In this document: positions 1,719 to 16,751 of the stretch, one piece after another
Layout: the number at the start of each line of letters is the position of its first letter
Position numbering within the stretch: position 1 is the stretch's first letter
The notes under the pieces: generated by a model
Told to the model about the DNA's origin: nothing
Databases searched by the model: none
The model's input: the letters and a program-made list of their open reading frames with translations, nothing else
Virus genome (UHGV): UHGV-0314203
Reading direction: 5' to 3' (one strand)
Length of the DNA stretch: 32,844 nucleotides
DNA from: a virus
Program-made: the position numbers and the translations under genes

Positions 1719-2249
1719 TTACCTTAATTTATCAAGCTCTCGTTTATTTCTTTTATCATGTATATCATTAAGAAATAATATATTACTAGCAATGATACTA
1801 AATAACGCTATTATTTGTAGATATACTAATAACGCTGTGATAAAAAATCCAAACTTGCAGAACATGTGCTTATGCAAGGAAATGAAATCCAGATTTGAAA
1901 ATATAGGTTTCGTTAAATTTATTATAACAATAGAAAATATTACAATAGCTGAAATTATAATGGTTTTCACTATCAGCGTAATTCGCTCAATATCTTTTTC
2001 TGTTTCCTTATGATAGTTTATACTAGTTATTGTTGATGGCTTTACAATTGAACTTACAGCTGCAGGGTAAATATATGCAAGCCAAATACCTGCAATAGTG
2101 AAGATCATTGCAGAAATGTTTTGCAAGGTAGATAAAATATCTTTTATATCTGCATACGTATATTTGTCTCCGAACAAATAAGCAATAGCTATAATTGTTA
2201 GGAGAAAACATATGTGCAAAATTTTAGGTTTTATAATCATACTATGCAC
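1719..2249 (-). CDS. small integral membrane protein, about 4 predicted TM helices (cassette A, gene 2)
   Basis: 176 aa with four long hydrophobic segments (e.g. ILHICFLLTIIAIAYLF, FGFFITALLVYLQIIALFSIIASNILFL); very AT-rich; overlaps the upstream gene by 8 nt. Confidence 0.7.
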   Translation of the reverse strand: MHSMIIKPKILHICFLLTIIAIAYLFGDKYTYADIKDILSTLQNISAMIFTIAGIWLAYIYPAAVSSIVKPSTITSINYHKETEKDIERITLIVKTIIISAIVIFSIVIINLTKPIFSNLDFISLHKHMFCKFGFFITALLVYLQIIALFSIIASNILFLNDIHDKRNKRELDKLR

Positions 2250-3444
2250 CTATTTTATGAATCTGCACTGCTGTATCATTATCAGCTTCTGGTTGTTCTA
2301 TTATATCTTCATTTTTAAAACAATTCACCAAATCATTTCTATGAGCTTTTACTACACTCATTAAATATGAAGAAGAGTAATGTTTGTTTCTGTTAGAAAG
2401 GTCAACGTGAATTTCATGGCGATAAACATATTCATCTAACCAAGTAGTTGAACCATTTTTCCCATTTATTTTGAATCCGATGCGTGCGTGATCATTCCCT
2501 ACATTCTCATTGTTATTTTCTGTACCTTCTGAAATAGGATTATGGTTTTCTATATATTCATCGATGAGTTTAGTGAACTCTTCAGGCGTAGGCGTTCCTT
2601 CGACTAATAATTCAACGCGATGTTTTTTTGATAAAATAGGAGAGCTTCTTGAGAAAACATCTCCAACTGCATCAAATAACTTCTGCCATTTTTCCCGTGT
2701 ATCAGGTATGTTTGTTTCTATTACGTCATGGTAAACAATGTGAGTGATTTTTTTACACAGTTCTTCTATGTTTGCTCCACTCGTGATCATCCTTGTTTGT
2801 TTAGTCTGTACTTTAAAAACTAAACTTTCATCATCACCTTGAGAAAAAAGAACACGTTTGTAATGAACGTCTTCAGGTGAGTCATTACGAGGGCGAGTCA
2901 TATCTATGACTTTTTTATTAGGATGCTCCATCCTAAAGTCAACGTATGCTTTAATATAATGACAGAAAAGATCTGTATCCGTATTAGAACTTGGGAATCG
3001 TATGGATGCAATTTTGTTATACTCTGGAATTACCCAATAGTAGCAAGGTACGCCCCAGATATATTTACCGCCACCTTGAGTATCAGAGGCGGATACAACA
3101 TTATCTGAAGTGCCGTCAATCTTACTTTCAGCATCTATACCTTGAATATTTCCAGAGTTATCACCAAGCGTTTTCCAGATAACAAATAGATAATCTCCTG
3201 TCGTACTGTCATATGAAATATTTTTACAGTATGCTTTTGTTCTTCTATTATTATCCTTTCCCCATGGAACAGATTGTTCAACTGTTCTTGAACAGATCCA
3301 GCTATATAAGTTACACAGAACATGGGATAAGTTCTTTTCGACTAATTCCGGCGATTTGCCTTGTCGTATTTTATAAAGGCCAAACATTTCTAAATCAAAA
3401 AATGTTATAATGCCGCGTTCAGTTTTAAAGTTGGTTTTACTCAT
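2242..3444 (-). CDS. hypothetical 400-aa protein, no recognisable catalytic motif (cassette A, gene 1)
   Basis: Long ORF in AT-rich DNA, same strand as cI and int, 80 bp downstream of the cI stop; Asn/Asp/Lys-rich composition unlike the phage backbone. Confidence 0.7.
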   Translation of the reverse strand: MSKTNFKTERGIITFFDLEMFGLYKIRQGKSPELVEKNLSHVLCNLYSWICSRTVEQSVPWGKDNNRRTKAYCKNISYDSTTGDYLFVIWKTLGDNSGNIQGIDAESKIDGTSDNVVSASDTQGGGKYIWGVPCYYWVIPEYNKIASIRFPSSNTDTDLFCHYIKAYVDFRMEHPNKKVIDMTRPRNDSPEDVHYKRVLFSQGDDESLVFKVQTKQTRMITSGANIEELCKKITHIVYHDVIETNIPDTREKWQKLFDAVGDVFSRSSPILSKKHRVELLVEGTPTPEEFTKLIDEYIENHNPISEGTENNNENVGNDHARIGFKINGKNGSTTWLDEYVYRHEIHVDLSNRNKHYSSSYLMSVVKAHRNDLVNCFKNEDIIEQPEADNDTAVQIHKIGA

Positions 3445-3524: not shown

Positions 3525-4406
3525 TTAATTCGAAATGATTGTGCTTCTTATGCATGCAACTACCTCGATATCAGAAAATGCACATTCAAAGTAAGTTTCT
3601 TTACTTCTGATATTTATCATACCTTTAGGTAGCCTAGTAATTTGTCTGACGGAATAGGTTCCATCAATATTAATTAACCAGTATCCATCTAATACATCAG
3701 AAAATTTCTGATCACAGATGTATGCCACTAAACCATCCTGAACGACAATTGGTGCTGAAAGATTAGCGGGTAAAAATGACGAATCGAAAATATATGAGCC
3801 ACTCTCAACCATTTTACCTGCATTGAGATGAAATTTAGGCAGTTCTTTTACCGATGTTGTGAGAGCATTGTGCTCGCTGCCTTGTCCAGTGGCTAGCCAT
3901 AAAAGAGAATTTCCTGTTTCCAACGAACATTTTATGATCCAATCAGCCGGGAATGTGTCTCGCAAATATCTATTTGCCATAGTGCTTTTAGATACATTCA
4001 GATGGTCGGCAAGTTCCTGTCTTGTTTTAAAGCCATACGCTTTCATTAGCCTGTCTATTGCATCACGTCCGCCTGAGTCCAAATTCAGATCGTTCCCAAT
4101 TGGGGACTTCAGGGTGGTGGCTTGGGAAGCGTGCTGAACCTTTGATGCAGTTGCCTTTGACATAACCGGAGCCTCAGTACTCTGAGGGAATGGTACGCCT
4201 TTTCCGAATGAGAGCCACTCGATAGATGCACCCGTTTCAATTGCACACTGAATTACCCAGTCAGCAGGAAATACGTCACGCATCCAGCGCGTGCCCATAG
4301 TGCTTGCAGATACGTTGAACTGTTCGCACAGAGCTTGCCTTGTCTTGAATCCATACGCTTCAAGCATGCGCGTTATGACTGCTTGTCCTCCGTTTTTGAA
4401 ATTCAT
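3525..4406 (-). CDS. cI: phage 186 CI-type immunity repressor with a tandemly duplicated N-terminal HTH domain
   Basis: 293 aa; two copies of an about 60-aa unit (…MLEAYGFKTRQALCEQFNVSASTMGTRWMRDVFPADWVIQCAIETGASIEWL… and …LMKAYGFKTRQELADHLNVSKSTMANRYLRDTFPADWIIKCSLETGNSLLWL…) plus a C-terminal domain; divergent from the early operon. Confidence 0.75.
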   Translation of the reverse strand: MNFKNGGQAVITRMLEAYGFKTRQALCEQFNVSASTMGTRWMRDVFPADWVIQCAIETGASIEWLSFGKGVPFPQSTEAPVMSKATASKVQHASQATTLKSPIGNDLNLDSGGRDAIDRLMKAYGFKTRQELADHLNVSKSTMANRYLRDTFPADWIIKCSLETGNSLLWLATGQGSEHNALTTSVKELPKFHLNAGKMVESGSYIFDSSFLPANLSAPIVVQDGLVAYICDQKFSDVLDGYWLINIDGTYSVRQITRLPKGMINIRSKETYFECAFSDIEVVACIRSTIISN

Positions 4407-6359: not shown

Positions 6360-6586
6360 TGGCTGATGCAATGGATCTCGTACAGCAGCGCGTTGAAGAA
6401 AAACGCCAGCGCCACATCCGTGCTGCCCGTGCCAAAACGCCGGGCGTGTCCCGCGTGCTTTGCATTGAGTGTGAAGCGCCAATTCCACCAGCACGCCGCC
6501 GCGCCATTCCGGGAGTGCAGCTTTGCATTACCTGTCAGGAAATAGCAGAGCTGAAAGGTAAACATTACAACGGAGGTGCTGTATGA
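6359..6586 (+). CDS. TraR/DksA-family C4 zinc-finger protein
   Basis: 75 aa with CIECEAPIP…CITCQ (CxxC-N17-CxxC), as in phage/plasmid TraR-type proteins. Confidence 0.7.
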   Translation: MADAMDLVQQRVEEKRQRHIRAARAKTPGVSRVLCIECEAPIPPARRRAIPGVQLCITCQEIAELKGKHYNGGAV

Positions 6587-7440
6587 GCACCATCCTGAAA
6601 TGGGCGGGAAATAAAACCGCAATTATGTCCGAACTGAAAAAACACCTTCCTGCTGGCCCGCGACTGGTTGAACCTTTCGCGGGTTCCTGTGCAGTGATGA
6701 TGGAGACGGATTACCCCAGCTATCTGGTTGCGGATATTAATCCTGATTTAATCAACCTCTATAAAAAGGTTGCCGCTGATTGTGAATCGTTTATATCTCG
6801 CGCCAGAGTTTTATTTGAGAACGCAAGCAGGGAGATGGATTATTACAACATAAGGCAGGAGTTTAATTACTCAACTGAAATTACTGATTTCATGAAAGCG
6901 GTATATTTCCTGTATCTCAATCGTCACGGTTACCGTGGTTTATGTCGCTATAACAAGAGCGGGCATTTCAACATTCCCTACGGTAATTATAAAAATCCGT
7001 ATTTCCCTGAAAAAGAAATTCGCGAATTTGCAGAAAAAGCCCAGCGAGCAACGTTTATCTGCGCCAGCTTTGATGAAACGCTGGCGATGTTGAAGGCGGG
7101 GGATGTGGTGTATTGCGATCCGCCGTATGACGGCACGTTTTCCGGTTATCACACTGACGGCTTCACTGAAGATGACCAGTATCACCTGGCATCCGTTCTT
7201 GAACATCGGTCATCAGAAGGACATCCGGTCATTGTTTCTAACAGTGACACATCCCTGATCCGTTCGCTGTATCGCAATTTTATTCACCACTACATCAAGG
7301 CAAAACGCAGCATCGGTGTGGCAGCTGGCGAGGGTAAATCAGCAACAGAAATCATTGCTGTTTCCGGGCCGCGCTGCTGGGTGGGATTTGATTATTCGCG
7401 TGGCGTGGACAGTTCTGCCGTGTACGGAGTACGTGCATGA
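6583..7440 (+). CDS. dam: DNA adenine (N6) methyltransferase, Dam-like orphan methylase
   Basis: 285 aa; N-terminal LKWAGNK…FAGSCAV (AdoMet-binding) and catalytic DPPY (YCDPPYDG) motifs. Confidence 0.85.
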
Positions 7441-9851
7441 GTCATGCCGATATGAACAACTGCTGCGGCTTTAACGAGGCTGCCGCAGCATTCTCATGGA
7501 ACAGCCCGAAAAAGGCCATTAACCCTTATCTGGACCCGGCGGAAGTTGCGCCGGTTTCTGCGCTTTCAAACCTGATCACTCTGTACGCTGCCGATAACGA
7601 GCAGGAACAACTGCGCCGCGAGGCACTGAGTGATCAGGTCTGGGAGCGTTATTTCTTTAATGAATCCCGTGATCCTGTCCAGCGCGAAATGGAGCAGGAT
7701 AAGCTAATTAGCCGGGCAAAGCTGGCGCATGAGCAGCAGCGTTTTAATCCAGACATGGTCATTCTGGCAGATGTCAACGCCCAGCCTTCCCATATCAGCA
7801 AGCCGCTGATGCAACGTATTAAATACTTCAGCAATCTGGGCAGGCCAAAGGCTTATTCCCGCTATTTGCGTGAGACGATTAAGCCATGCCTGGAACGACT
7901 GGAGCATGTACGCGACAGCCAGCTATCTGCATCTTTTCGTTTTATGGCAAGCCATGAAGGGCTGGACGGTCTGCTGATCCTGCCTGAAATGAGTCAGGAT
8001 CAGGTGAAACGCCTGTCCACCCTTGTCGCTGCGCATATGAGCATGTGTCTTGATGCCGCTTGTGGTGATTTGTACGCCTCCGATGATGTTAAGCCGGAAG
8101 AAATCCGCAAGACATGGGAAAAGGTGGCAGCAGAAACCCTGCGACTGGATGTCATACCACCTGCGTTTGAGCAACTCCGCCGGAAAAGAAACCGCCGCAA
8201 ACCTGTGCCCTATGAACTCATTCCGGGTTCGCTGGCGCGTATGTTGTGCGCCGACTGGTGGTACCGGAAATTATGGAAGATGCGTTGCGAATGGCGGGAA
8301 GAGCAGTTGCGTGCTGTCTGTCTGGTCAGCAAAAAAGCATCTCCCTATGTCAGCTATGAAGCCGTGATGCATAAACGTGAGCAGCGCCGTAAGTCGCTGG
8401 AGTTTTTCCGTTCTCATGAACTGGTGAACGAAGACGGCGACACGCTGGACATGGAGGATGTGGTAAACGCCAGCAGCAGCAACCCGGCGCATCGCCGCAA
8501 TGAGATGATGGCCTGCGTTAAAGGTCTGGAGCTTATCGCGGAAATGCGTGGTGACTGCGCCGTTTTCTACACCATCACCTGTCCGTCACGTTTCCATTCC
8601 ACGCTAAATAACGGCAGGCCAAACCTGACCTGGACCAACGCGACAGTAAGACAAAGCAGCGATTATCTGGTCGGCATGTTTGCTGCATTTCGTAAGGCTA
8701 TGCACAAAGCCGGATTGCGCTGGTATGGCGTGCGGGTGGCTGAGCCGCATCATGACGGTACAGTTCACTGGCACCTGTTGTGTTTTATGCGCAAAAAAGA
8801 TCGCCGCGCCATTACTGCTTTGTTGCGTAAGTTTGCCATTCGTGAAGACCGCGAGGAGCTGGGGAATAACACGGGACCACGCTTTAAGTCTGAGTTGATT
8901 AACCCGCGCAAAGGAACGCCGACAAGCTACATCGCGAAATATATCAGCAAGAACATTGACGGGCGTGGTCTGGCTGGCGAGATCAGCAAGGAAACGGGTA
9001 AATCTCTGCGTGATAACGCTGAATACGTGAATGCCTGGGCGTCTTTGCATCGTGTTCAGCAATTCCGCTTCTTTGGCATTCCGGGGCGCCAGGCTTACCG
9101 TGAACTGCGATTGCTGGCTGGTCAGGCGGCAAGGCAACAGGGTGACAAAAAAGCAGGTGCGCCGGTACTGGATAACCCGCGCCTTGATGCAATCCTGGCT
9201 GCTGCTGATGCTGGTTGTTTTGCCACCTACATCATGAAGCAGGGCGGCGTACTGGTTCCCCGCAAATATCACCTCATCAGAACTGCTTATGAAATTAACG
9301 AAGAGCCGACCGCCTATGGCGATCACGGCATTCGTATTTATGGCATCTGGTCACCCATTGCAGAGGGCAAGATCTGCACTCATGCCGTGAAGTGGAAAAT
9401 GGTTCGTAAGGCCGTTGACGTTCAGGAGGCGGCAGCCGACCAGGGCGCTTGCGCCCCTTGGACTCGTGGCAATAACTGTCCCCTTGCTGAAAATTTGAAC
9501 CAACAAGGGAAAGACAAATCAGCTGATGGGGATACCAGGACGGACATTACCCGCATGGATGACAAGGAGTTGCACGATTACCTGCACAGTATGAGCAAAA
9601 AAGAGCGCCGGGAACTGGCTGCAAGGTTACGCCTGGTGAAGCCGAAACGGCGTAAAGACTACAAACAGCGAATTACAGACCATCAGCGACAGCAACTCGT
9701 CTATGAACTGAAGTCCAGAGGATTTGATGGCAGCGAGAAAGAGGTCGATTTACTCCTTCGCGGCGGCAGTATTCCGTCAGGAGCAGGCCTGCGTATCTTC
9801 TATCGGAACCAGCGTTTGCAGGAAGATGATAAGTGGCGAAACCTGTATTAA
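7437..9851 (+). CDS. A: replication initiation endonuclease, P2 gene A type
   Basis: 804 aa, the largest early ORF, at the position of P2 A / 186 A; the internal minus-strand ORFs are antisense artefacts. Confidence 0.8.
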
Positions 9852-10004: not shown

Positions 10005-10193
10005 ATGCAGGACTATTTTTTGGAGTCTTTGAAGCTCCAGCGCATTGATTTTTTTCTTAAGCTTGTAGCGGCTAGTGAGTGTAGTGATGAAGAGAAGGGG
10101 CTGGCTTTGCAGTGGGTTTCTGAACTAACAGATGAACTCATGGCAAAAATCAGAACCCACGAATACAACCGCTCAATGGATGTCATCAGCTGA
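10005..10193 (+). CDS. small hypothetical protein (62 aa), first gene of the SOS-controlled pair
   Basis: ATG 10005 with AGGAGG upstream (tcataggaggaaag-ATG); directly downstream of the LexA box. Confidence 0.45.
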   Translation: MQDYFLESLKLQRIDFFLKLVAASECSDEEKGLALQWVSELTDELMAKIRTHEYNRSMDVIS

Positions 10194-10203
10194 GGTGACT
10201 TTT

Positions 10204-10437
10204 ATGCGCATTGAAATAATGATCGATAAAGAGCAGAAGATTAGCCAGTCTACCCTGGACGCCCTTGAATCCGAGCTTTACCGCAATCTGCGCCCCCTGT
10301 ATCCAAAAACGGTAATTCGTATCCGCAAAGGTAGCTCTAACGGTGTGGAACTGACTGGGCTGCAACAGGACGAAGAAAGAAAACAAGTGATGAAAATTAT
10401 GCAGAAGGTGTGGGAAGACGACAGCTGGCTGCATTAA
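10204..10437 (+). CDS. DinI-family protein
   Basis: 77 aa from ATG 10204 (MRIEIMIDKEQ…KIMQKVWEDDSWL), closely following the pattern of E. coli DinI; GAGGTGA 6 nt upstream. Confidence 0.75.
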   Translation: MRIEIMIDKEQKISQSTLDALESELYRNLRPLYPKTVIRIRKGSSNGVELTGLQQDEERKQVMKIMQKVWEDDSWLH

Positions 10438-10572
10438 GAAACGTTGCTGGCGTCTGAACTTGCTTCTGGCGTCAGCAAGGTTGAACAACGAGCCCTTGCG
10501 AGGCGTTAGCTCTGTAGTGCATGTCTATGCCGCATGAGATCGCATGATCGTTTGAGGATCGTTTTTGCTAAG

Positions 10573-10596
10573 GCCCGCCAGAACTGGCGGGCTTTT
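10573..10596 (+). terminator. rho-independent terminator (gcccgccag / ctggcgggc stem, then TTTT)
   Basis: Perfect inverted repeat followed by a T-run, downstream of the DinI-like gene. Confidence 0.6.
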
Positions 10597-10636
10597 GCGT
10601 AGATCATGCAGGTGCATGAAAACCACTACATAAAGC

Positions 10637-10660
10637 GGGCAGGCGTGGCGGGGATACGAG
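10637..10660. other. candidate cos (cohesive-end) region, G-rich gggcaggcgtggcggggatacgag
   Basis: Contains GGCGTGGCGGGGA, which matches my recollection of the start of the 186/P2 19-nt cohesive end; lies between the replication region and portal Q as expected; unverified. Confidence 0.3.
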
Positions 10661-10687
10661 CGCGCGTATTAGGTTTTATTTGAGAAC

Positions 10688-10717
10688 TTGTTAAATATGA
10701 TGTTTCACAATTAGAAT
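10688..10717 (+). promoter_or_regulatory. sigma70-like promoter for cassette B: TTGTTA, 18-nt spacer, TAGAAT
   Basis: Read in sequence about 30 nt upstream of the first cassette gene; spacer length is at the upper limit. Confidence 0.35.
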
Positions 10718-10746
10718 TGTCCGTAAATCATTCTGTTGGAGGCATT

Positions 10747-10929
10747 ATGGAATACTTAAGCGAAATCATTAGTTTTTTGGCAGGGGCGGGTATCAGTTGG
10801 GCTATTACTTTCAATGTGTATAATTACAAAGTAAAGCAAATTTGTATGAACCAAAGTTCTCCCATTCAAAATGGAAATACAGTGACAAACGGAAGCATTG
10901 TCGGTAGAGATCAGACTAATTCTCACTAA
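10747..10929 (+). CDS. small single-TM protein (60 aa) ending in an NGSIVGxxQTN motif (cassette B, gene 1)
   Basis: ATG 10747 with GGAGG upstream; hydrophobic IISFLAGAGISWAITFNVY; the C-terminal motif recurs at the start of the next ORF. Confidence 0.5.
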   Translation: MEYLSEIISFLAGAGISWAITFNVYNYKVKQICMNQSSPIQNGNTVTNGSIVGRDQTNSH

Positions 10930-10942
10930 GGGAGTGATTGGT

Positions 10943-11509
10943 GTGTTTAGTAAACAGGAGCAATCAGGTAATAGAGTAAGAAATGGGAGTATTGTTGGAG
11001 GGAGTCAAACAAACCACATTACCAATATAGTTCGTAGTAGTAATCGAACTTTAGAGCGTTTGTACCAAAAGTTCTCTCAAGAAGATGGAACTATGGGGGG
11101 GCAGGATTTTTGTGATAAGTTAAAGCACTATTTAGCCTCGGATACCAATCCAGATATAAGAGATTTAGCTACAAAGCTAACTGATAGTGATAGAACTGAA
11201 TTAATTTACTTTGCAACTGCTCTTAAAGAGCAAGCCCTCAAGGCGATAATGAAGTGCCAATCTTCCAAAACCGCACAAGAAATATATGCGTTTATTCTTG
11301 ATAAAATTCATGCTGATTTTATGCTCAAAATTATACCTCTTATTCAGAAGGATGAGGACCGAGTAATTGTTGATGAAAAAATTTCATTGGTATTAGAAAA
11401 TATTAGTGAAATGTTGGGCGATAATTTGTTAAACTTATCCGAAAAGGATCTTTTGGGACTGTTGTATTTTTTAGGCGGAAATTGTTATATAAGGTGGGAT
11501 AAATGTTAG
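10943..11509 (+). CDS. hypothetical mostly alpha-helical protein (about 188 aa; cassette B, gene 2)
   Basis: GTG 10943 with AAGGGAG 8 nt upstream (the ORF track starts it at TTG 10898); N-terminus repeats the NGSIVGxxQTN motif; stop overlaps the next start. Confidence 0.55.
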   Translation: MFSKQEQSGNRVRNGSIVGGSQTNHITNIVRSSNRTLERLYQKFSQEDGTMGGQDFCDKLKHYLASDTNPDIRDLATKLTDSDRTELIYFATALKEQALKAIMKCQSSKTAQEIYAFILDKIHADFMLKIIPLIQKDEDRVIVDEKISLVLENISEMLGDNLLNLSEKDLLGLLYFLGGNCYIRWDKC

Positions 11510-12003
11510 TTTATCATCCAGCATATGATGCCTATCATTGTCTATTTAGAATGATGGCAATTATGGAAAATACAAATCGGCTTGAGATTGATAAGCTTAA
11601 AATATTGGATTTTTACATTTTATTTCCTGCGTTATTAAGTGAAGTGAAAATGCCGAGAGAATTTATTAAAATTAAAAAAACAGCAAAGCTACATCATAAT
11701 GAATATCATGATCCATTGAGTCCAAGGATTATTTTCAAGGAAATGCGTCAAATACAGGATGCAGCACTAAAATGTATGCTTGCGACTGGTTATATTGATT
11801 CTGATGATTTCAGCAATGGTTTTGTCTCAAGAACAAATAAACAATTACCACTGAACCTAGCCTTAGAAATGGGCGTTTTTTTAGAGCGCAAAGAACCGTT
11901 TTCATCTTTCATTACACAAAAGATGGCTAAATTTCATCTGACTGGACCTGATGGATTGAAGGCTAGAACTAAACTTATGGAGTATAGATATGACACTTAT
12001 TAA
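11503..12003 (+). CDS. hypothetical protein (166 aa; cassette B, gene 3)
   Basis: ATG 11503 with AAGGTGGG upstream; overlaps gene 2 by 7 nt and gene 4 by 14 nt (translational coupling). Confidence 0.65.
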   Translation: MLVYHPAYDAYHCLFRMMAIMENTNRLEIDKLKILDFYILFPALLSEVKMPREFIKIKKTAKLHHNEYHDPLSPRIIFKEMRQIQDAALKCMLATGYIDSDDFSNGFVSRTNKQLPLNLALEMGVFLERKEPFSSFITQKMAKFHLTGPDGLKARTKLMEYRYDTY

Positions 12004-13894
12004 GCCTACTCTTATTGTAACCAGATTAACAGTTTTTCAACACGGACATCGTGCATTTGATTGTGAATTCCACAAAGGTGTTAACATTATTCGTGGGCGA
12101 AATAGTTCTGGTAAAACTACAATAATGGATATGCTGGCATTTTCATTGGGAGCTGAAAATATCAGGTGGAAACCACAGGCTTTGAAATGCACTAGAACAA
12201 TCGTTGAAGTGCTTCTCAATAATGAGAAAGCATGCTTTAAACGAGAGATATCTATTGAGCAAATGCGACCTCTTTATATTTATTGGGGAGCGATGGATAA
12301 GGCTTTGAATGCTGGGGAACACGAATGGGAATTATACCCATTCAAGAGAACTGAGAGTAAAATTAGCTTCACCCAAGCTATTTTCAATGCATTATCAATG
12401 CCCTTGGCACAAGGTGCTGGTTCTTCTAATTTGACATTGCATCAGATTTTACGTGTCTTGTATGCAGATCAGCCGTCGTTACATAGTCCAATTTTTCGAT
12501 TTGACAGATTTGATAATGCTCTTACCCGTGAGACGGTAGGTGGATACTTATGTGGTGTTTATAATGATGAGTTGTACAATGCACAACTTTCTTTAAGAGA
12601 TGTTGAGACCGAACTAACAAAGAAAGTTACTGAATTAAAAAGTATCTTTACTGTATTAGGTAGATCTGGACAGGCTCCAGATTTACAAGGTATTGATGAG
12701 AAAATAAAGCATCTAAATAAATTGAGAGCTATTGAGAATGTAAAACTAACAAATAGAGCTATTATAACTAATGAAGAAGGGGCTGATTCTGAAAAACGAA
12801 TGGGTACTATCAGGGAGGAACTCAATGAAGCTAAAAGGAAATTATCTTCCCTAAAAGATAAAATCCAATCTTTGGATTTTGAAATTTCAGATTCTGATAT
12901 GTTTATATCAGAATTAAATGAGCGGCTAAAAAACTTAGAACAGTCTGGAGAAACGCGTGCTATATTTGATAGTATGAATTTTGATTTTTGCCCTAGTTGT
13001 CTTTCCAAAATAGATAAGGCTCATAATGATCATGTTTGTCATCTATGTAAAGTGGAACAATTAGATGATAAAGCTGAAAATCAGTTATTAAGAATGAAAA
13101 ATGAATTAACTCTTCAAATCAAAGAATCTCTTCAATTAATGGATAGAAGAAAAGAAGAGTTGGTAAGATTAAAGCGAGATGTTCCTTTAGCTGAGAGTGA
13201 ATTAAAAAGGCTTGAACAGGATTATTTCAAAGAGTCACACTATTGGTCTTCACCGCAAGAGTTAGCTGTAGGTAAAATATATAGGGAAATTGGACGGCTT
13301 GATGAAGAAATAAAAAGAGCTTATGAAGATAAGAAGCTTATTGTTGTTATTAATGAACTTCAAGAGCGTCGCGATGAACTTCAGGCGGAAAAAAATAGAC
13401 TTGATGATCTTATTGAACTTTATGAAGAAAAAGAGGAAGTTCTTAAAGATAAAATTTATGCTTCAGTGAGCTCAATAGCACAAGAGCTTTTACAAGAAGA
13501 TTTGCCTTTGCAAAAAGAGTTTATGTCTCCTGAAAGTGTGGAGTTTAGTTTTACTGATAATAGCGTTTATGTGAATGGTAGTAAGAACTTTTCTGAAAGT
13601 TCAGCTGTAGTATTAAGGCATATATTCCATTTGGCACTACTTTCAGCAAGTATAGAGAACCACTCAATGCGACTTCCAAGATTTATGATGTTAGATGGGA
13701 TCGACGATGGTGGAATGGAAAAAGAACGGAGTCACAATTTACAGGAAATAATAATTGATGAGTGCTCACGTTATGAACATGATTATCAGTTGATATTTGC
13801 AACATCTGAAATAAATCCCAAATACAGTGAGAGTGAATATATTGTTGGTGAGTATTATTCGCCAGATAATTATTCATTGAAAATAATTGAGTGA
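11990..13894 (+). CDS. SMC/Rad50/RecF-like ABC ATPase with a long coiled coil and paired CxxC motifs (cassette B, gene 4)
   Basis: 634 aa; N-terminal Walker A GRNSSGKTT in an SMC_N-like context; central Glu/Lys/Leu-rich coiled coil; CPSC-x14-CHLC at 12989-13048; C-terminal signature-like FSESS and Walker-B-like FMMLDGIDD. Confidence 0.8.
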   Translation: MTLIKPTLIVTRLTVFQHGHRAFDCEFHKGVNIIRGRNSSGKTTIMDMLAFSLGAENIRWKPQALKCTRTIVEVLLNNEKACFKREISIEQMRPLYIYWGAMDKALNAGEHEWELYPFKRTESKISFTQAIFNALSMPLAQGAGSSNLTLHQILRVLYADQPSLHSPIFRFDRFDNALTRETVGGYLCGVYNDELYNAQLSLRDVETELTKKVTELKSIFTVLGRSGQAPDLQGIDEKIKHLNKLRAIENVKLTNRAIITNEEGADSEKRMGTIREELNEAKRKLSSLKDKIQSLDFEISDSDMFISELNERLKNLEQSGETRAIFDSMNFDFCPSCLSKIDKAHNDHVCHLCKVEQLDDKAENQLLRMKNELTLQIKESLQLMDRRKEELVRLKRDVPLAESELKRLEQDYFKESHYWSSPQELAVGKIYREIGRLDEEIKRAYEDKKLIVVINELQERRDELQAEKNRLDDLIELYEEKEEVLKDKIYASVSSIAQELLQEDLPLQKEFMSPESVEFSFTDNSVYVNGSKNFSESSAVVLRHIFHLALLSASIENHSMRLPRFMMLDGIDDGGMEKERSHNLQEIIIDECSRYEHDYQLIFATSEINPKYSESEYIVGEYYSPDNYSLKIIE

Positions 13895-13959: not shown

Positions 13960-14988
13960 TCAAAGTACGTATGGTCTAAATCTAATTATTTCTATTTCAA
14001 GCCAGTCGTTTAATTGATCAAATCTTTTCTGCATGGGCACCAATTCATTGCGCATAAATACCTTACTAGCCTTCTCCACATCCCCAAACCCCCCAACATT
14101 ATTCGGCAAAATTCCCATCATCTGAGGCGGTACGCGGTGTGCAGCCATCATGTCGTCCCGGCTCACGTTCTTGATGTTCAGAAATTCATCTTTCGCTGCG
14201 ACTTCTGACAACGGGATAATCTGAAGTCCGTCCTTTTTGCCGTTAGGCGAGTACATAAACAGATTGCGGAAGTTGCCTGGACCTTTGGCGCTTTTCATCG
14301 CGTTGCGGAGGTTGTTCACATCCTCCTGATTCTGCGCGGCGTCGGTCATGTACATGATGAAGCCTGCATGACTACCGTTGATGTAATACTTACGGCGGAA
14401 CAGCGTGGCGGATTCGTTGAGCAGGGCGGATGGAATGGCAGAAAGATAGCCGGGCAGGCCGTAGATCTCCTGGTTGATGTCCGGTTCCATCAGATGAAAA
14501 ATGCTGCCTTTCGTGAACTGATACGGCTGGGTTGTCATACCGTATTGCACAAACCAGTAGGTATCCAGGTCTAACCCGCGTCGGGTGTATTTTGCCAGCG
14601 CAGGCTCAAGGGCGATAACTTCACCGAATCGGTTCGTGCGTTTCTCCAGGTAGGCGTTACCAAATACCAGATAGTCCTGCACAAAACGCGAAAAAGCCTG
14701 TTGGCTGAGCAGCGGATGAGGGATATAGGTACTGGTCAGAATGTTGCACTTTACTGCAATCGGGGAACTGTGATGCACGGCAGCGCGGAAGGTGCGCGCC
14801 AGTCCGTCAAAGCTGACGGGAGGCTCATACCAGCGATCTGTCTGAACACATTCCACATAGTCCAGCAGTTCGCGGCGGTCAAGTACTGGAACGGGATCAC
14901 CGAAGCTGAATGCTTCGGCTGAAGTCTGGTTTTTATGCTGGATCTGATTCGTCGCCGCAGTGCGGTTCTTCTTACTCTTTCCCATCAA
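13960..14988 (-). CDS. Q: portal protein (P2 gpQ-like)
   Basis: 342 aa, size and position as P2 Q; stop overlaps the terminase gene start. Confidence 0.85.
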   Translation of the reverse strand: MMGKSKKNRTAATNQIQHKNQTSAEAFSFGDPVPVLDRRELLDYVECVQTDRWYEPPVSFDGLARTFRAAVHHSSPIAVKCNILTSTYIPHPLLSQQAFSRFVQDYLVFGNAYLEKRTNRFGEVIALEPALAKYTRRGLDLDTYWFVQYGMTTQPYQFTKGSIFHLMEPDINQEIYGLPGYLSAIPSALLNESATLFRRKYYINGSHAGFIMYMTDAAQNQEDVNNLRNAMKSAKGPGNFRNLFMYSPNGKKDGLQIIPLSEVAAKDEFLNIKNVSRDDMMAAHRVPPQMMGILPNNVGGFGDVEKASKVFMRNELVPMQKRFDQLNDWLEIEIIRFRPYVL

Positions 14989-16751
14989 AAAATCTCCACA
15001 ATATTGCTGGTATTGGCGGATTCGCCCTGCAGCGGTTCGTTAAACAGTGCGTGCATCGTTGCCCAGGCCAGATCGGCGTGGCTGGCTTCTTCGCTGCGGC
15101 TGGCTTCATAGGTCGGGCGGTTGCCACTGGCGGTGGTGGCGCGACGTATTGCCATAAAGGACTGCGCTATGTCGGTGTGTCCGGCGTCAAACTCCAGACG
15201 GCGGTGGCTGATAATGTCGTAGGCCTTGAGTACCAGGGCGTTTTTAACGTTGGGGTTGTAGACAAACTCCCGGACGGCAGGAAAAAACGCTTTCACGTTC
15301 TCGTAAACCCCGTGACCAACGCCGGTTGAGTCGATACCGATATAGGTCACGTTGTACTGTTCGGTCAGTTTTTTGATGGCGTCAGCCTGGGCGCGGAAGT
15401 CCATCCCGCGCCACTGGTGACGCTCAAGAATGCGGAACTTACCACCCGGCACGGCTGGCGGTGCCACCACCACGCATCCGGCGCTGTCGCCGTTTTGCGT
15501 GCCTTTTGCCGGGTCATAACCGATCCACACTTCGCGCCAGCCAAACGGGCGCAGCGCCAGTGCATGAAAGTCGGTCCAGACTTCCCAACTGTCCACCATG
15601 CACGCCTGCAGCTCGCTGAGCGGAAACACGGACGCGAGATCGTCCACAAACTCGCACATCAGCAGGTTCTGGTATTCGTCCGGGCTGTACTCCATGCGTA
15701 GCTGGTCGAGGTCGAACAGGTTACAGCCGCCGCGCACCGCATCTTCCACGGTGACTATCTGGCGGTATTGCCCGTCTGCGCACAGCAGGCCGGGGGCCAG
15801 ATTGCTGTGGGACAGGTCGATGTCCACCTTATCGGCTTTGTTGCGCCCACGGTTGAACAGCGCACCGGACCAGAACGGATAAGCACTGTGTGTCAGACTG
15901 GATGGCGTGGAAAAATAGGTTTGTCGCCATTTTTTGTGAATAGCCATACCGGAAGCCACTTTGCGCAGCTCCTGGAATTTTGGTATCCAGAAATATTCAT
16001 CCAGATACAGGTTGCCGTGATAACTCTGGGCCGTGCGGGCATTGGTGCCGAGGAAATACAGTGTGGCCCCGTTGGGAAGCACCATCGGATCGCCTTTCAG
16101 CTCCACCTCTACTTCTTTGGCAAAGTCGATGATGTACTGTTTGAAGACGTGGGCCTGTGCCTTACTGGCAGAAAGGAAAATCTGGTTACGTCCGGTCAGC
16201 AGGGCGTCAATCAGGGCTTCACGGGCAAAATAGAAGGTCGCGCCGATCTGGCGTGACTTCAGCAGGTTGCGGATGCGGTTGGTTTTTCCGGCTTCCCACC
16301 AGTGGCGCTGGTAGTTGAACATGGAGGAATGGAAGATTTCTTCCAGCTTCTCAATCTGTTCATCGGTGAAAACATTCTTTTCCGGCTGACGGCGTGGGCC
16401 TTTGTTGCGGTTGGCGACGTTAGGGTTTAAGTCGGCTTCGTTGCCGCCATTGTTAAACTTGCCGATCCGCGCGTGGCGCTCAGACTGGCGCGCCAGCAGG
16501 TCAATCTCTTTGAAATCTTTCCCTTCTTTGTGCTCCTTCATAATGAGCTGGCAGTAGCGTGCGGCGGTGGTGAGCTGCATCTGATCCAGCGGCCCATAGT
16601 CACCCCACTTGTCGCGTTTTTTCCAGCTGTGAACGGTTGCAACTTTCTCGCCCAGCATTTCAGCAATGCGGGCTACGCGGTATCCCTGAAAGTACAGCAG
16701 CATGGCCTGCCGACGGGGATCGAGATCTGCGGGTGTCAGTGTGGTGTTCAT
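14985..16751 (-). CDS. P: terminase large (ATPase) subunit (P2 gpP-like)
   Basis: 588 aa, size and position as P2 P, divergent from the capsid operon. Confidence 0.85.
   Translation of the reverse strand: MNTTLTPADLDPRRQAMLLYFQGYRVARIAEMLGEKVATVHSWKKRDKWGDYGPLDQMQLTTAARYCQLIMKEHKEGKDFKEIDLLARQSERHARIGKFNNGGNEADLNPNVANRNKGPRRQPEKNVFTDEQIEKLEEIFHSSMFNYQRHWWEAGKTNRIRNLLKSRQIGATFYFAREALIDALLTGRNQIFLSASKAQAHVFKQYIIDFAKEVEVELKGDPMVLPNGATLYFLGTNARTAQSYHGNLYLDEYFWIPKFQELRKVASGMAIHKKWRQTYFSTPSSLTHSAYPFWSGALFNRGRNKADKVDIDLSHSNLAPGLLCADGQYRQIVTVEDAVRGGCNLFDLDQLRMEYSPDEYQNLLMCEFVDDLASVFPLSELQACMVDSWEVWTDFHALALRPFGWREVWIGYDPAKGTQNGDSAGCVVVAPPAVPGGKFRILERHQWRGMDFRAQADAIKKLTEQYNVTYIGIDSTGVGHGVYENVKAFFPAVREFVYNPNVKNALVLKAYDIISHRRLEFDAGHTDIAQSFMAIRRATTASGNRPTYEASRSEEASHADLAWATMHALFNEPLQGESANTSNIVEIF

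Follow-up and report, generated by a model that had tools for sequence, protein, structure and literature searches.

Among the closest described counterparts of the operon analyzed here are the Lamassu systems with solved structures, namely Salmonella LmuACB (9HQU/9HQX) and V. cholerae DdmC/LmuB (9NYG, 9UXH). In these systems the genes are ordered as LmuA, middle component and LmuB, and the LmuB protein has a Rad50-like split head, a short coiled coil in a polypeptide of ~630 amino acids (aa) and a zinc hook (Zn-hook). The same gene order and LmuB architecture are found in an operon within UHGV virus genome UHGV-0314203, a stretch of 32,844 nucleotides (nt) that is referred to here, at its full length, as the window. 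Our subject is the LmuB gene of this operon, a plus strand open reading frame (ORF) at 11990-13894 that codes for 634 aa, and specifically its last 111 codons (13560-13894, aa 524-634), where the Walker B Asp is followed by Gly in place of the catalytic Glu and where the H-loop position has Ser in place of His. Both substitutions are conserved in close homologues that retain an intact set of nucleotide-binding residues, and we consider it likely that ATP serves this protein mainly as a binding switch.

A departure of the LmuB Walker B motif from the hhhhDE consensus has been described before. Specifically, a Glu to Gln change has been reported for LmuB (PMC10586767; bioRxiv 10.1101/2025.03.14.643221), and PMC12663957 gives the motif as hhhhDD for the long type of Lamassu and as hhhhD[Q/S/T/E] for the short type. 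The SalEnt LmuACB complex turns over ~1 ATP per minute with a requirement for DNA, both the Walker A Lys and the signature Ser are required for defense, and the complex binds and cleaves DNA in vitro without ATP (bioRxiv 10.1101/2025.03.14.643221). A second Lamassu structural study describes the ATPase rate as 'moderate'. According to PMC12663957, activation of Vc Lamassu is stimulated by ATP with ATP-gamma-S being ineffective, and the Walker A mutations K40A (Vc) and K42A (Ec-Lipase) impair defense. A 2023 review argued that defective hydrolysis likely makes activation irreversible (PMC10586767). The terms 'H-loop' and 'histidine' do not occur in the Lamassu structural papers that we searched.

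Set beside the solved LmuBs, with which it shares 12-16% identity, the LmuB from the window likewise has a Walker B motif without the catalytic Glu. The solved LmuBs are of the DUF3732 type, carry D-Q at Walker B, and have MC3/CTD7 partners together with a Cap4 nuclease LmuA, whereas the LmuB from the window carries D-G, has two CxxC pairs and MC5/CTD9 partners, is accompanied by no nuclease, and gives no match to Pfam DUF3732 at E<=0.1. The Pfam description of DUF3732 includes a 'DQP' Walker B motif.

Identification of the 634 aa protein as a LmuB

The 634 aa ORF encodes LmuB, the Rad50-like sensor ATPase in a Lamassu/ABC-three component (ABC-3C) operon of the CTD9/MC5 type, and its length is within the ~600-650 aa of short-type LmuBs. 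PADLOC LmuB models are the best matches to this protein and cover nearly its full length (PDLC03862, E 4.5e-43), while Pfam and NCBIfam detect only the N-terminal P-loop region, with SMC/Rad50-type families. The AlphaFold2 model, with a predicted local distance difference test (pLDDT) score of 79, has an N-lobe at aa 1-190, helices at 193-503 and a C-lobe at 509-634, so that an antiparallel coiled coil, with a Zn-hook at its apex, divides the ABC head into two lobes. When this model was compared with the PDB using Foldseek, solved LmuB chains came out on top (9hqu_A at E 3.5e-20, then 9hqx, 9uxh, 9nyg and 9ux7), with E values of 1e-20 to 1e-12 that rank above Rad50, SMC and JetC; a non-LmuB integrative model, 9a6c_A, also ranks among these top chains. 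When the PDB was searched at the sequence level with the protein and with close-family, C-lobe and heads-only profiles, matches were limited to the Walker A region of Rad50, SMC and 9hqu_A. In a profile search 9hqu_A was matched by the N-lobe alone, at E 4e-4, and the highly divergent C-lobe gave a profile that matched no PDB chain.

The N-terminal and central motifs of this ATPase are located on the plus strand. The Walker A motif GRNSSGKTT (aa 36-44, 12095-12121) is canonical and contains K42. In the AlphaFold2 model a short strand ends in the Q-loop, D160-Q161 (12467-12472). The Zn-hook region (12989-13048) is at the apex of the coiled coil, a part of the model with low pLDDT, and contains the CxxC pairs C334-P-S-C337 and C350-H-L-C353; C334, P335, C337 and C350 do not vary among homologues, and C353 is nearly invariant.

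Register of the C-lobe motifs

The C-lobe peptides named in the original prediction lie at aa 533-542 (NFSESSAVVL), aa 564-577 (RFMMLDGIDDGGME) and aa 601-607 (LIFATSE). The first contains a divergent signature, FSESS (aa 534-538, 13589-13603), which replaces LSGGQ/E and aligns with Rad50 S793-GGE. The second is the Walker B strand and D-loop region, RFMML-D569-G570-I-D572-D573-G-G-M-E577 (13679-13720), in which Walker B D569 (13694-13696) is directly followed by G570 (13697-13699) at the position of the catalytic Glu. The third contains the H-loop position within A604-T605-S606-E607 (13799-13810), where S606 (13805-13807) stands in place of the His.

Two lines of evidence define this register. 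The first is the order of elements in the AlphaFold2 C-lobe, which is that of a canonical ABC fold: a helix at 536-556 at the signature, a strand at 565-568 leading into D569, a loop, a helix at 578-592, and a strand at 600-605 followed by S606. The second is an hhalign comparison of the C-lobe profile with the C-lobe of P. furiosus Rad50 (a sequence that matches PDB 1F2T_B), which pairs S535 with S793, D569 with D822, G570 with E823, E577 with D829 and S606 with H855. Since the Rad50 alignment is insignificant alone, the register rests on the alignment and the AlphaFold2 topology together.

One could object that the motifs are misplaced and that the true Walker B is IIIDE at aa 587-591 (13748-13762), a sequence that literally fits hhhhDE, with H582 or H597 close by and some His serving as the H-loop residue. 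We regard this as extremely improbable. Residues 578-592 are helical in the AlphaFold2 model, E591 is Leu or Ile and D590 is variable among relatives, and any hhhhDE in the C-lobe is found in just 2 of 146 relatives. Similarly, H582 varies among His, Gln, Arg and Lys, H597 is replaced by Val, Ile or Ala, and there is no conserved His near the H-loop. The invariant D569, in contrast, ends a strand beside the signature helix as it does in every ABC fold. IIIDE was accordingly rejected as the Walker B motif, given that it is inside the predicted helix and that E591 is Leu or Ile in most relatives. We note that IIIDE is a trap for motif-based annotation.

The original prediction that the Walker B Asp is followed by Gly and that the H-loop position is occupied by Ser is therefore borne out: D569-G570 is in strand register, S606 follows the strand at 600-605, and neither G570 nor S606 varies among the 120 close homologues. 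A canonical Walker B and H-loop elsewhere in the protein, which had been named as the outcome that would overturn the prediction, was not found, with IIIDE being helical and unconserved and with no conserved His nearby.

Conservation of the nucleotide site among relatives

Two sets of relatives were analyzed. The close set has 120 homologues with at least 53% identity. For the broad set, 1.84 billion cluster representatives were searched with a profile, which returned 1,567 relatives; from the best 150 of these, 145 near-full-length sequences at 28-54% identity were analyzed. In the close set D569, G570, D572, D573, G574, G575, M576, E577, A604, T605 and S606 are all invariant. This invariance excludes chance or decay as the source of G570 and S606.

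In the broad set the Walker B Asp is again invariant, and the residue that follows it is Asn (93 sequences), Gly (28, including the query), Thr (9), Ser (7), Asp (4), Ala (2), Gln (2) or Cys (1), and never Glu. The H-loop position has Ser in 119 sequences and Ala in 15, with a few Lys, Thr, Gln or Glu, and never His. Residues on the binding side of the site are retained throughout. Specifically, G41 and K42 are invariant in all sequences that cover the site and G36 is nearly so, Q161 is invariant in 146 of 146, and signature S537 is invariant with S535 and S538 nearly so. Around the site, G575, R580 and Q600 are invariant wherever covered, D573 and Q585 are invariant or nearly so, and the third residue after the Walker B Asp is acidic in 99% of sequences, being Glu in 140 of 146 and D572 in the query.

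This conservation bears on whether the nucleotide site is vestigial, with the protein acting as a coiled-coil scaffold or DNA clamp in which ATP has no role. The loss of two catalytic residues, the divergent FSESS signature and the ability of SalEnt LmuACB to act on DNA without ATP in vitro would all agree with such a scaffold. However, a dead site would not keep G41, K42, Q161, S537 and D569 invariant, and G36 nearly so, down to 28% identity, and mutations in Walker A or the signature abolish defense in three other Lamassu systems. We consider a vestigial site very unlikely. A pseudogene or decayed site was likewise rejected, based on the invariance of the binding residues. As judged from the aligned sequences, the pattern is that of a maintained nucleotide-binding and head-engagement site that lacks the two residues by which hydrolysis is normally accelerated. 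In this respect the original prediction of a binding-competent ATPase that hydrolyzes poorly, or is activated by a partner, is a reasonable one, as the binding and engagement residues are kept and the two catalytic ones are gone.

Other Lamassu clades also lack the Glu and the His

The original prediction had further regarded this catalytic core as unusual for an SMC-like defense component, and this part of it is not supported. In addition to the published deviations of the LmuB Walker B, both residues are absent from four unrelated LmuBs encoded on plasmids of Bacillus, Streptomyces and Methylocystis (PADLOC E 1.7e-56 to 5.7e-184), each of which has a LmuA partner. In these four proteins the residue after the Walker B Asp is Thr, Gly, Ser and Ser, and the H-loop position reads S/G, D/N, N and D/Q, with His in none. 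The LmuB on a plasmid of Streptomyces sp. NBC_00690 (locus L037, 2947-4866; PADLOC E 5e-90), which is of the Cap4-nuclease type, has D-G within ILIIDGLSNN. D-G has thus evolved in two distant Lamassu clades or more, and it falls outside the D[Q/S/T/E] summary given in PMC12663957.

A tblastn search on plasmids also recovered lipase-type relatives, a sister clade on alphaproteobacterial plasmids with ~31% identity that encodes a DUF676 esterase-CTD9 LmuA, an MC5 protein and a LmuB with D-N-IEDKGM and TTSM. These short Lamassu systems share with the operon in the window the CTD9 and MC5 families, the Zn-hook and a core without Glu or His. The difference is in LmuA, which in the lipase type is 398-423 aa with a DUF676 alpha/beta-hydrolase, whereas in the window it is 188 aa with a short motif and is accompanied by a separate 60 aa membrane protein. 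The lipase-type relatives are probably the published Ec-Lipase system, clade H of PMC12663957, a correspondence that we treat as provisional. The Walker A K42 of the window protein has the same number as the published Ec-Lipase K42A mutation, which is a lead only. PMC12663957 describes clade O as short Lamassu with >100 sequences from >40 species, in which LmuC and LmuB are intact and LmuA is without an effector domain. The operon in the window fits this description and may belong to clade O. We found no mention of an upstream membrane mini-protein, or of Asn or Gly after the Walker B Asp, in the accessible portion of PMC12663957.

The absence of the catalytic Glu and the H-loop His is thus the rule in every Lamassu clade sampled here, and since both residues are missing from all of the sampled Lamassu ATPases, the trait is real but ordinary for the family. 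At most, what is new is that Asn and Gly join the residues allowed after the Walker B Asp, and that the H-loop His, which goes unmentioned in the structural papers searched, is missing as well. The finding as first stated matters little, as it adds Gly and Asn variants and an absent H-loop His to a published picture of poor Lamassu ATPases. It does sharpen a question raised by the 2025 structural papers, namely whether hydrolysis is needed for Lamassu activation. This could be tested more cleanly with a naturally occurring D-G/S protein, in which the base position is without a side chain, than with the D-Q proteins.

A likely role of ATP as a latch

The motif identities, their conservation, the fold and the membership of LmuB in the operon are established by the results above. 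The reading that we favor, and consider likely, is that this LmuB is the sensor of a CTD9/MC5 Lamassu in which ATP acts chiefly as a switch, through its binding and the engagement of the heads, and is hydrolyzed very slowly, possibly under stimulation by DNA. We infer its kinetics, DNA trigger and release mechanism as follows. Two heads would bind Mg-ATP and sandwich it between them by means of the residues retained in Walker A (Lys), the Q-loop (Gln), Walker B (Asp) and the signature (Ser). With the general base Glu replaced by Gly and the H-loop His by Ser, hydrolysis would be very slow, perhaps stimulated by DNA. By analogy with the solved Lamassu complexes, the LmuB dimer would hold LmuC/MC5 and the C-terminal domain of LmuA near the Zn-hook, and phage DNA ends or replication intermediates, together with ATP-driven head engagement, would release LmuA. 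The freed LmuA would then oligomerize through its C-terminal domain. Because Gly and Ser at the catalytic positions lead one to expect very slow hydrolysis, ATP would act as a latch and activation would be effectively one-way, a committed event rather than the stroke of a cycling motor.

Several points weigh against this reading. The Rad50 alignment that contributes to the motif register is statistically weak by itself, with a probability of 0.2%. The D-Q LmuBs do hydrolyze ATP slowly, so zero hydrolysis cannot be presumed for D-G, and the near-invariant acidic residue at the third position after the Walker B Asp (D572), together with D573, could support residual catalysis. Furthermore, this subtype has no enzymatic LmuA effector, and the steps downstream of LmuB may differ from those in the solved Cap4 systems.

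The main rival reading would make LmuB a still competent hydrolase in which the role of the Glu passes to D572, to D573 or to a residue contributed in trans, whether from the D-loop of the partner head, from MC5 or LmuA, or upon DNA binding. The 99% conservation of the acidic residue, and the invariance or near invariance of D573, G575, R580, Q585 and Q600, are what such a hydrolase would predict, as are the ATP hydrolysis by D-Q LmuBs in the presence of DNA and the failure of ATP-gamma-S to replace ATP in Vc Lamassu. However, Gly has no side chain to offer, and a second catalytic element is gone along with the H-loop His. An acidic residue at the same third position is also present in ABC ATPases that retain the Glu, as in the 'DEVD' of SMC and the 'DEPE' of OLD/AAA_15, so that its conservation need not point to a catalytic role. 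We think it unlikely that substitute residues restore competent hydrolysis.

The favored reading, in which ATP binding is the switch, can be placed among other ABC ATPases. Rad50/SbcC and SMC proteins share with this LmuB the fold, the Walker A motif, the Q-loop, the CxxC hook and the logic of sensing DNA ends. They also have hhhhDE and an H-loop His, hydrolyze ATP within their cycle and work with Mre11/SbcD or a kleisin, none of which is found in this system. Specifically, no Mre11/SbcD or kleisin gene is next to LmuB, where the neighbors are MC5, the CTD9 protein, the small membrane ORF and the phage portal. Heterodimeric ABC transporters have degenerate nucleotide-binding sites, and in that of CFTR nucleotide-binding domain 1 (NBD1) Ser replaces the Walker B Glu as well as the H-loop His, and the site binds ATP stably with very poor hydrolysis. 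Degenerate sites of the CFTR NBD1 type have the same two positions substituted and act as a structural or regulatory switch, a likeness that is a mechanistic analogy only. In addition, the degenerate site of a transporter is paired with a consensus site, whereas a LmuB homodimer would have two degenerate ones, and kinship is limited to the ABC superfamily.

An effector-less LmuA is paired with a membrane mini-protein

The LmuA-like protein (10943-11509, plus strand, 188 aa; phrog_13193) is recognized by its CTD9 docking domain, which makes up the C-terminal ~113 aa (Pfam CTD9, E 4e-30 over aa 74-185). No N-terminal enzymatic effector domain of the kinds known from other LmuAs (nuclease, lipase, Sir2, protease and others) was detected, as the ~73 aa that precede CTD9 have no Pfam or PADLOC match. 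A search with the LmuA-like protein returned only close homologues, all of 171-208 aa and none fused to a lipase.

The first gene of the operon is a small plus strand ORF of 60 aa at 10747-10929 (phrog_17975, E 5e-9) that has no Pfam match. The encoded protein has a transmembrane helix in its N-terminal part (MEYLSEIISFLAGAGISWAITF) and carries the motif NGNTVTNGSIVGRDQTNSH in its C-terminal part. The N-terminal ~25 aa of the LmuA-like protein (10943-11020) repeat this motif as SGNRVRNGSIVGGSQTNH. In local alignments the tail of the mini-protein scores on average 53.5 against the N-terminus of its cognate LmuA, 40.8 against non-cognate LmuAs and 19.1 +/- 4.4 when tails are shuffled.

The mini-protein and LmuA pair, with a gap of -4 to +11 nt between the genes, was extracted from 24 of the 25 relatives' loci processed, which span Enterobacterales, Burkholderiales, Pseudomonas, Acinetobacter, Elusimicrobia and a CTnDOT-like element. 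Across the loci (including L003-L024, L033-L035 and L040) the mini-proteins are 51-72 aa with a motif rich in Gly, Asn and Asp. The Prokaryotic Genome Annotation Pipeline (PGAP) leaves the mini-protein unannotated in E. coli, and it is annotated in an Allorhizobium plasmid. A single LmuA gene that was split by a frameshift and spans the small ORF was considered and rejected, as the separate stop codon and two-gene layout recur in 24 of 24 extracted loci.

In sister clades the position of the motif in LmuA is occupied by an esterase/lipase, and for this reason we suspect that the mini-protein is a detached membrane effector, which LmuA, once oligomerized, would recruit or template by way of the motif common to both. 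The layout resembles that of adjacent-gene amyloid-signaling pairs. Combining this with the latch leads to a joint reading that we offer tentatively, as possible rather than probable, in which the whole CTD9/MC5 branch has no ATP turnover, LmuB being a one-shot latch, and the mini-protein is the missing effector. Released LmuA oligomers would present multiple copies of their Gly, Asn and Asp-rich N-terminal motif, and these copies would act as a template for, or recruit, the same motif in the cytoplasmic tail of the mini-protein, driving its assembly into a membrane-damaging oligomer. To our knowledge, amyloid-like or homotypic-motif signaling coupled to an SMC-like sensor is undescribed for Lamassu. 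The mini-protein could matter more than the ATPase trait itself, since it provides a possible explanation for Lamassu systems with an effector-less LmuA.

A variant locus is present in a Balneolaceae metagenome-assembled genome (L031, 2615-4000), where the CTD9 protein is shortened to 147 aa and a 168 aa ORF without a Pfam match replaces the mini-protein. No MC5 gene is called in this locus, yet an MC5-like reading frame is visible.

Operon and prophage setting

Between LmuA and LmuB lies the gene for the middle component MC5, the LmuC equivalent (11503-12003, plus strand, 166 aa; Pfam MC5, E 2e-57; phrog_13252). It gives a weak match to PADLOC LmuC (E 9e-4), and its 3' end overlaps the start of the LmuB gene by 14 nt. 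The operon is carried by 4 of 5,426 complete E. coli genomes, in which the PGAP names of the operon partners agree with the MC5 and CTD9 assignments; in these identical loci the LmuA-like protein is labeled 'ABC-three component system protein'. There was no match to the operon in the INPHARED phage collection, and scans for promoters and terminators gave chance-level results.

The element that hosts the operon is a P2-like prophage with an integrase (607-1638), a CI repressor (3525-4406), a replication endonuclease gpA (7437-9851) and a DinI-like gene (10132-10437), followed beyond the operon by portal (13960-14988) and terminase (14985-16751) genes, both on the minus strand. The LmuB operon occupies a variable cargo slot, or hotspot, between gpA/DinI and the portal, and the guanine plus cytosine content of this cargo is 32-38% as against 52-60% in the flanking phage backbone. 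DinI and the operon are separated by a spacer that is also variable (10437-10747 in the window). In the four E. coli carriers it contains an extra gene (1698-2123 in L001 and 1750-2622 in L002) that is absent from the window and codes either for a 141 aa hypothetical protein, on the minus strand, or for a DUF6236 protein.

Genes that adjoin relatives of the operon include the defense genes GmrSD, Fic, DarT, SIR2 and PIN. Together with the P2 hotspot position, these neighbors support a putative role in phage or plasmid defense by abortive infection. One relative (L033, 6017-8663) is in a defense island with an AAA_15/AAA_21 ATPase and Fic downstream and GmrSD and a methylase upstream, and another (L040, 4961-7713) is in a defense island adjoining DarT, SIR2 and HNH genes.

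Elsewhere in the window, two minus strand genes at 1719-3444, between the integrase and the CI repressor, match the PADLOC candidate defense system PDC-M18 (M18B at E 6e-24 and M18A at E 1e-35), with neither gene containing a Pfam domain. Finally, just upstream of gpA there is a D12-class (Dam-like) N6-adenine methyltransferase gene (6583-7440, plus strand; Pfam E 1e-76), which is also recognized by PADLOC as an orphan methyltransferase (E 1e-109).

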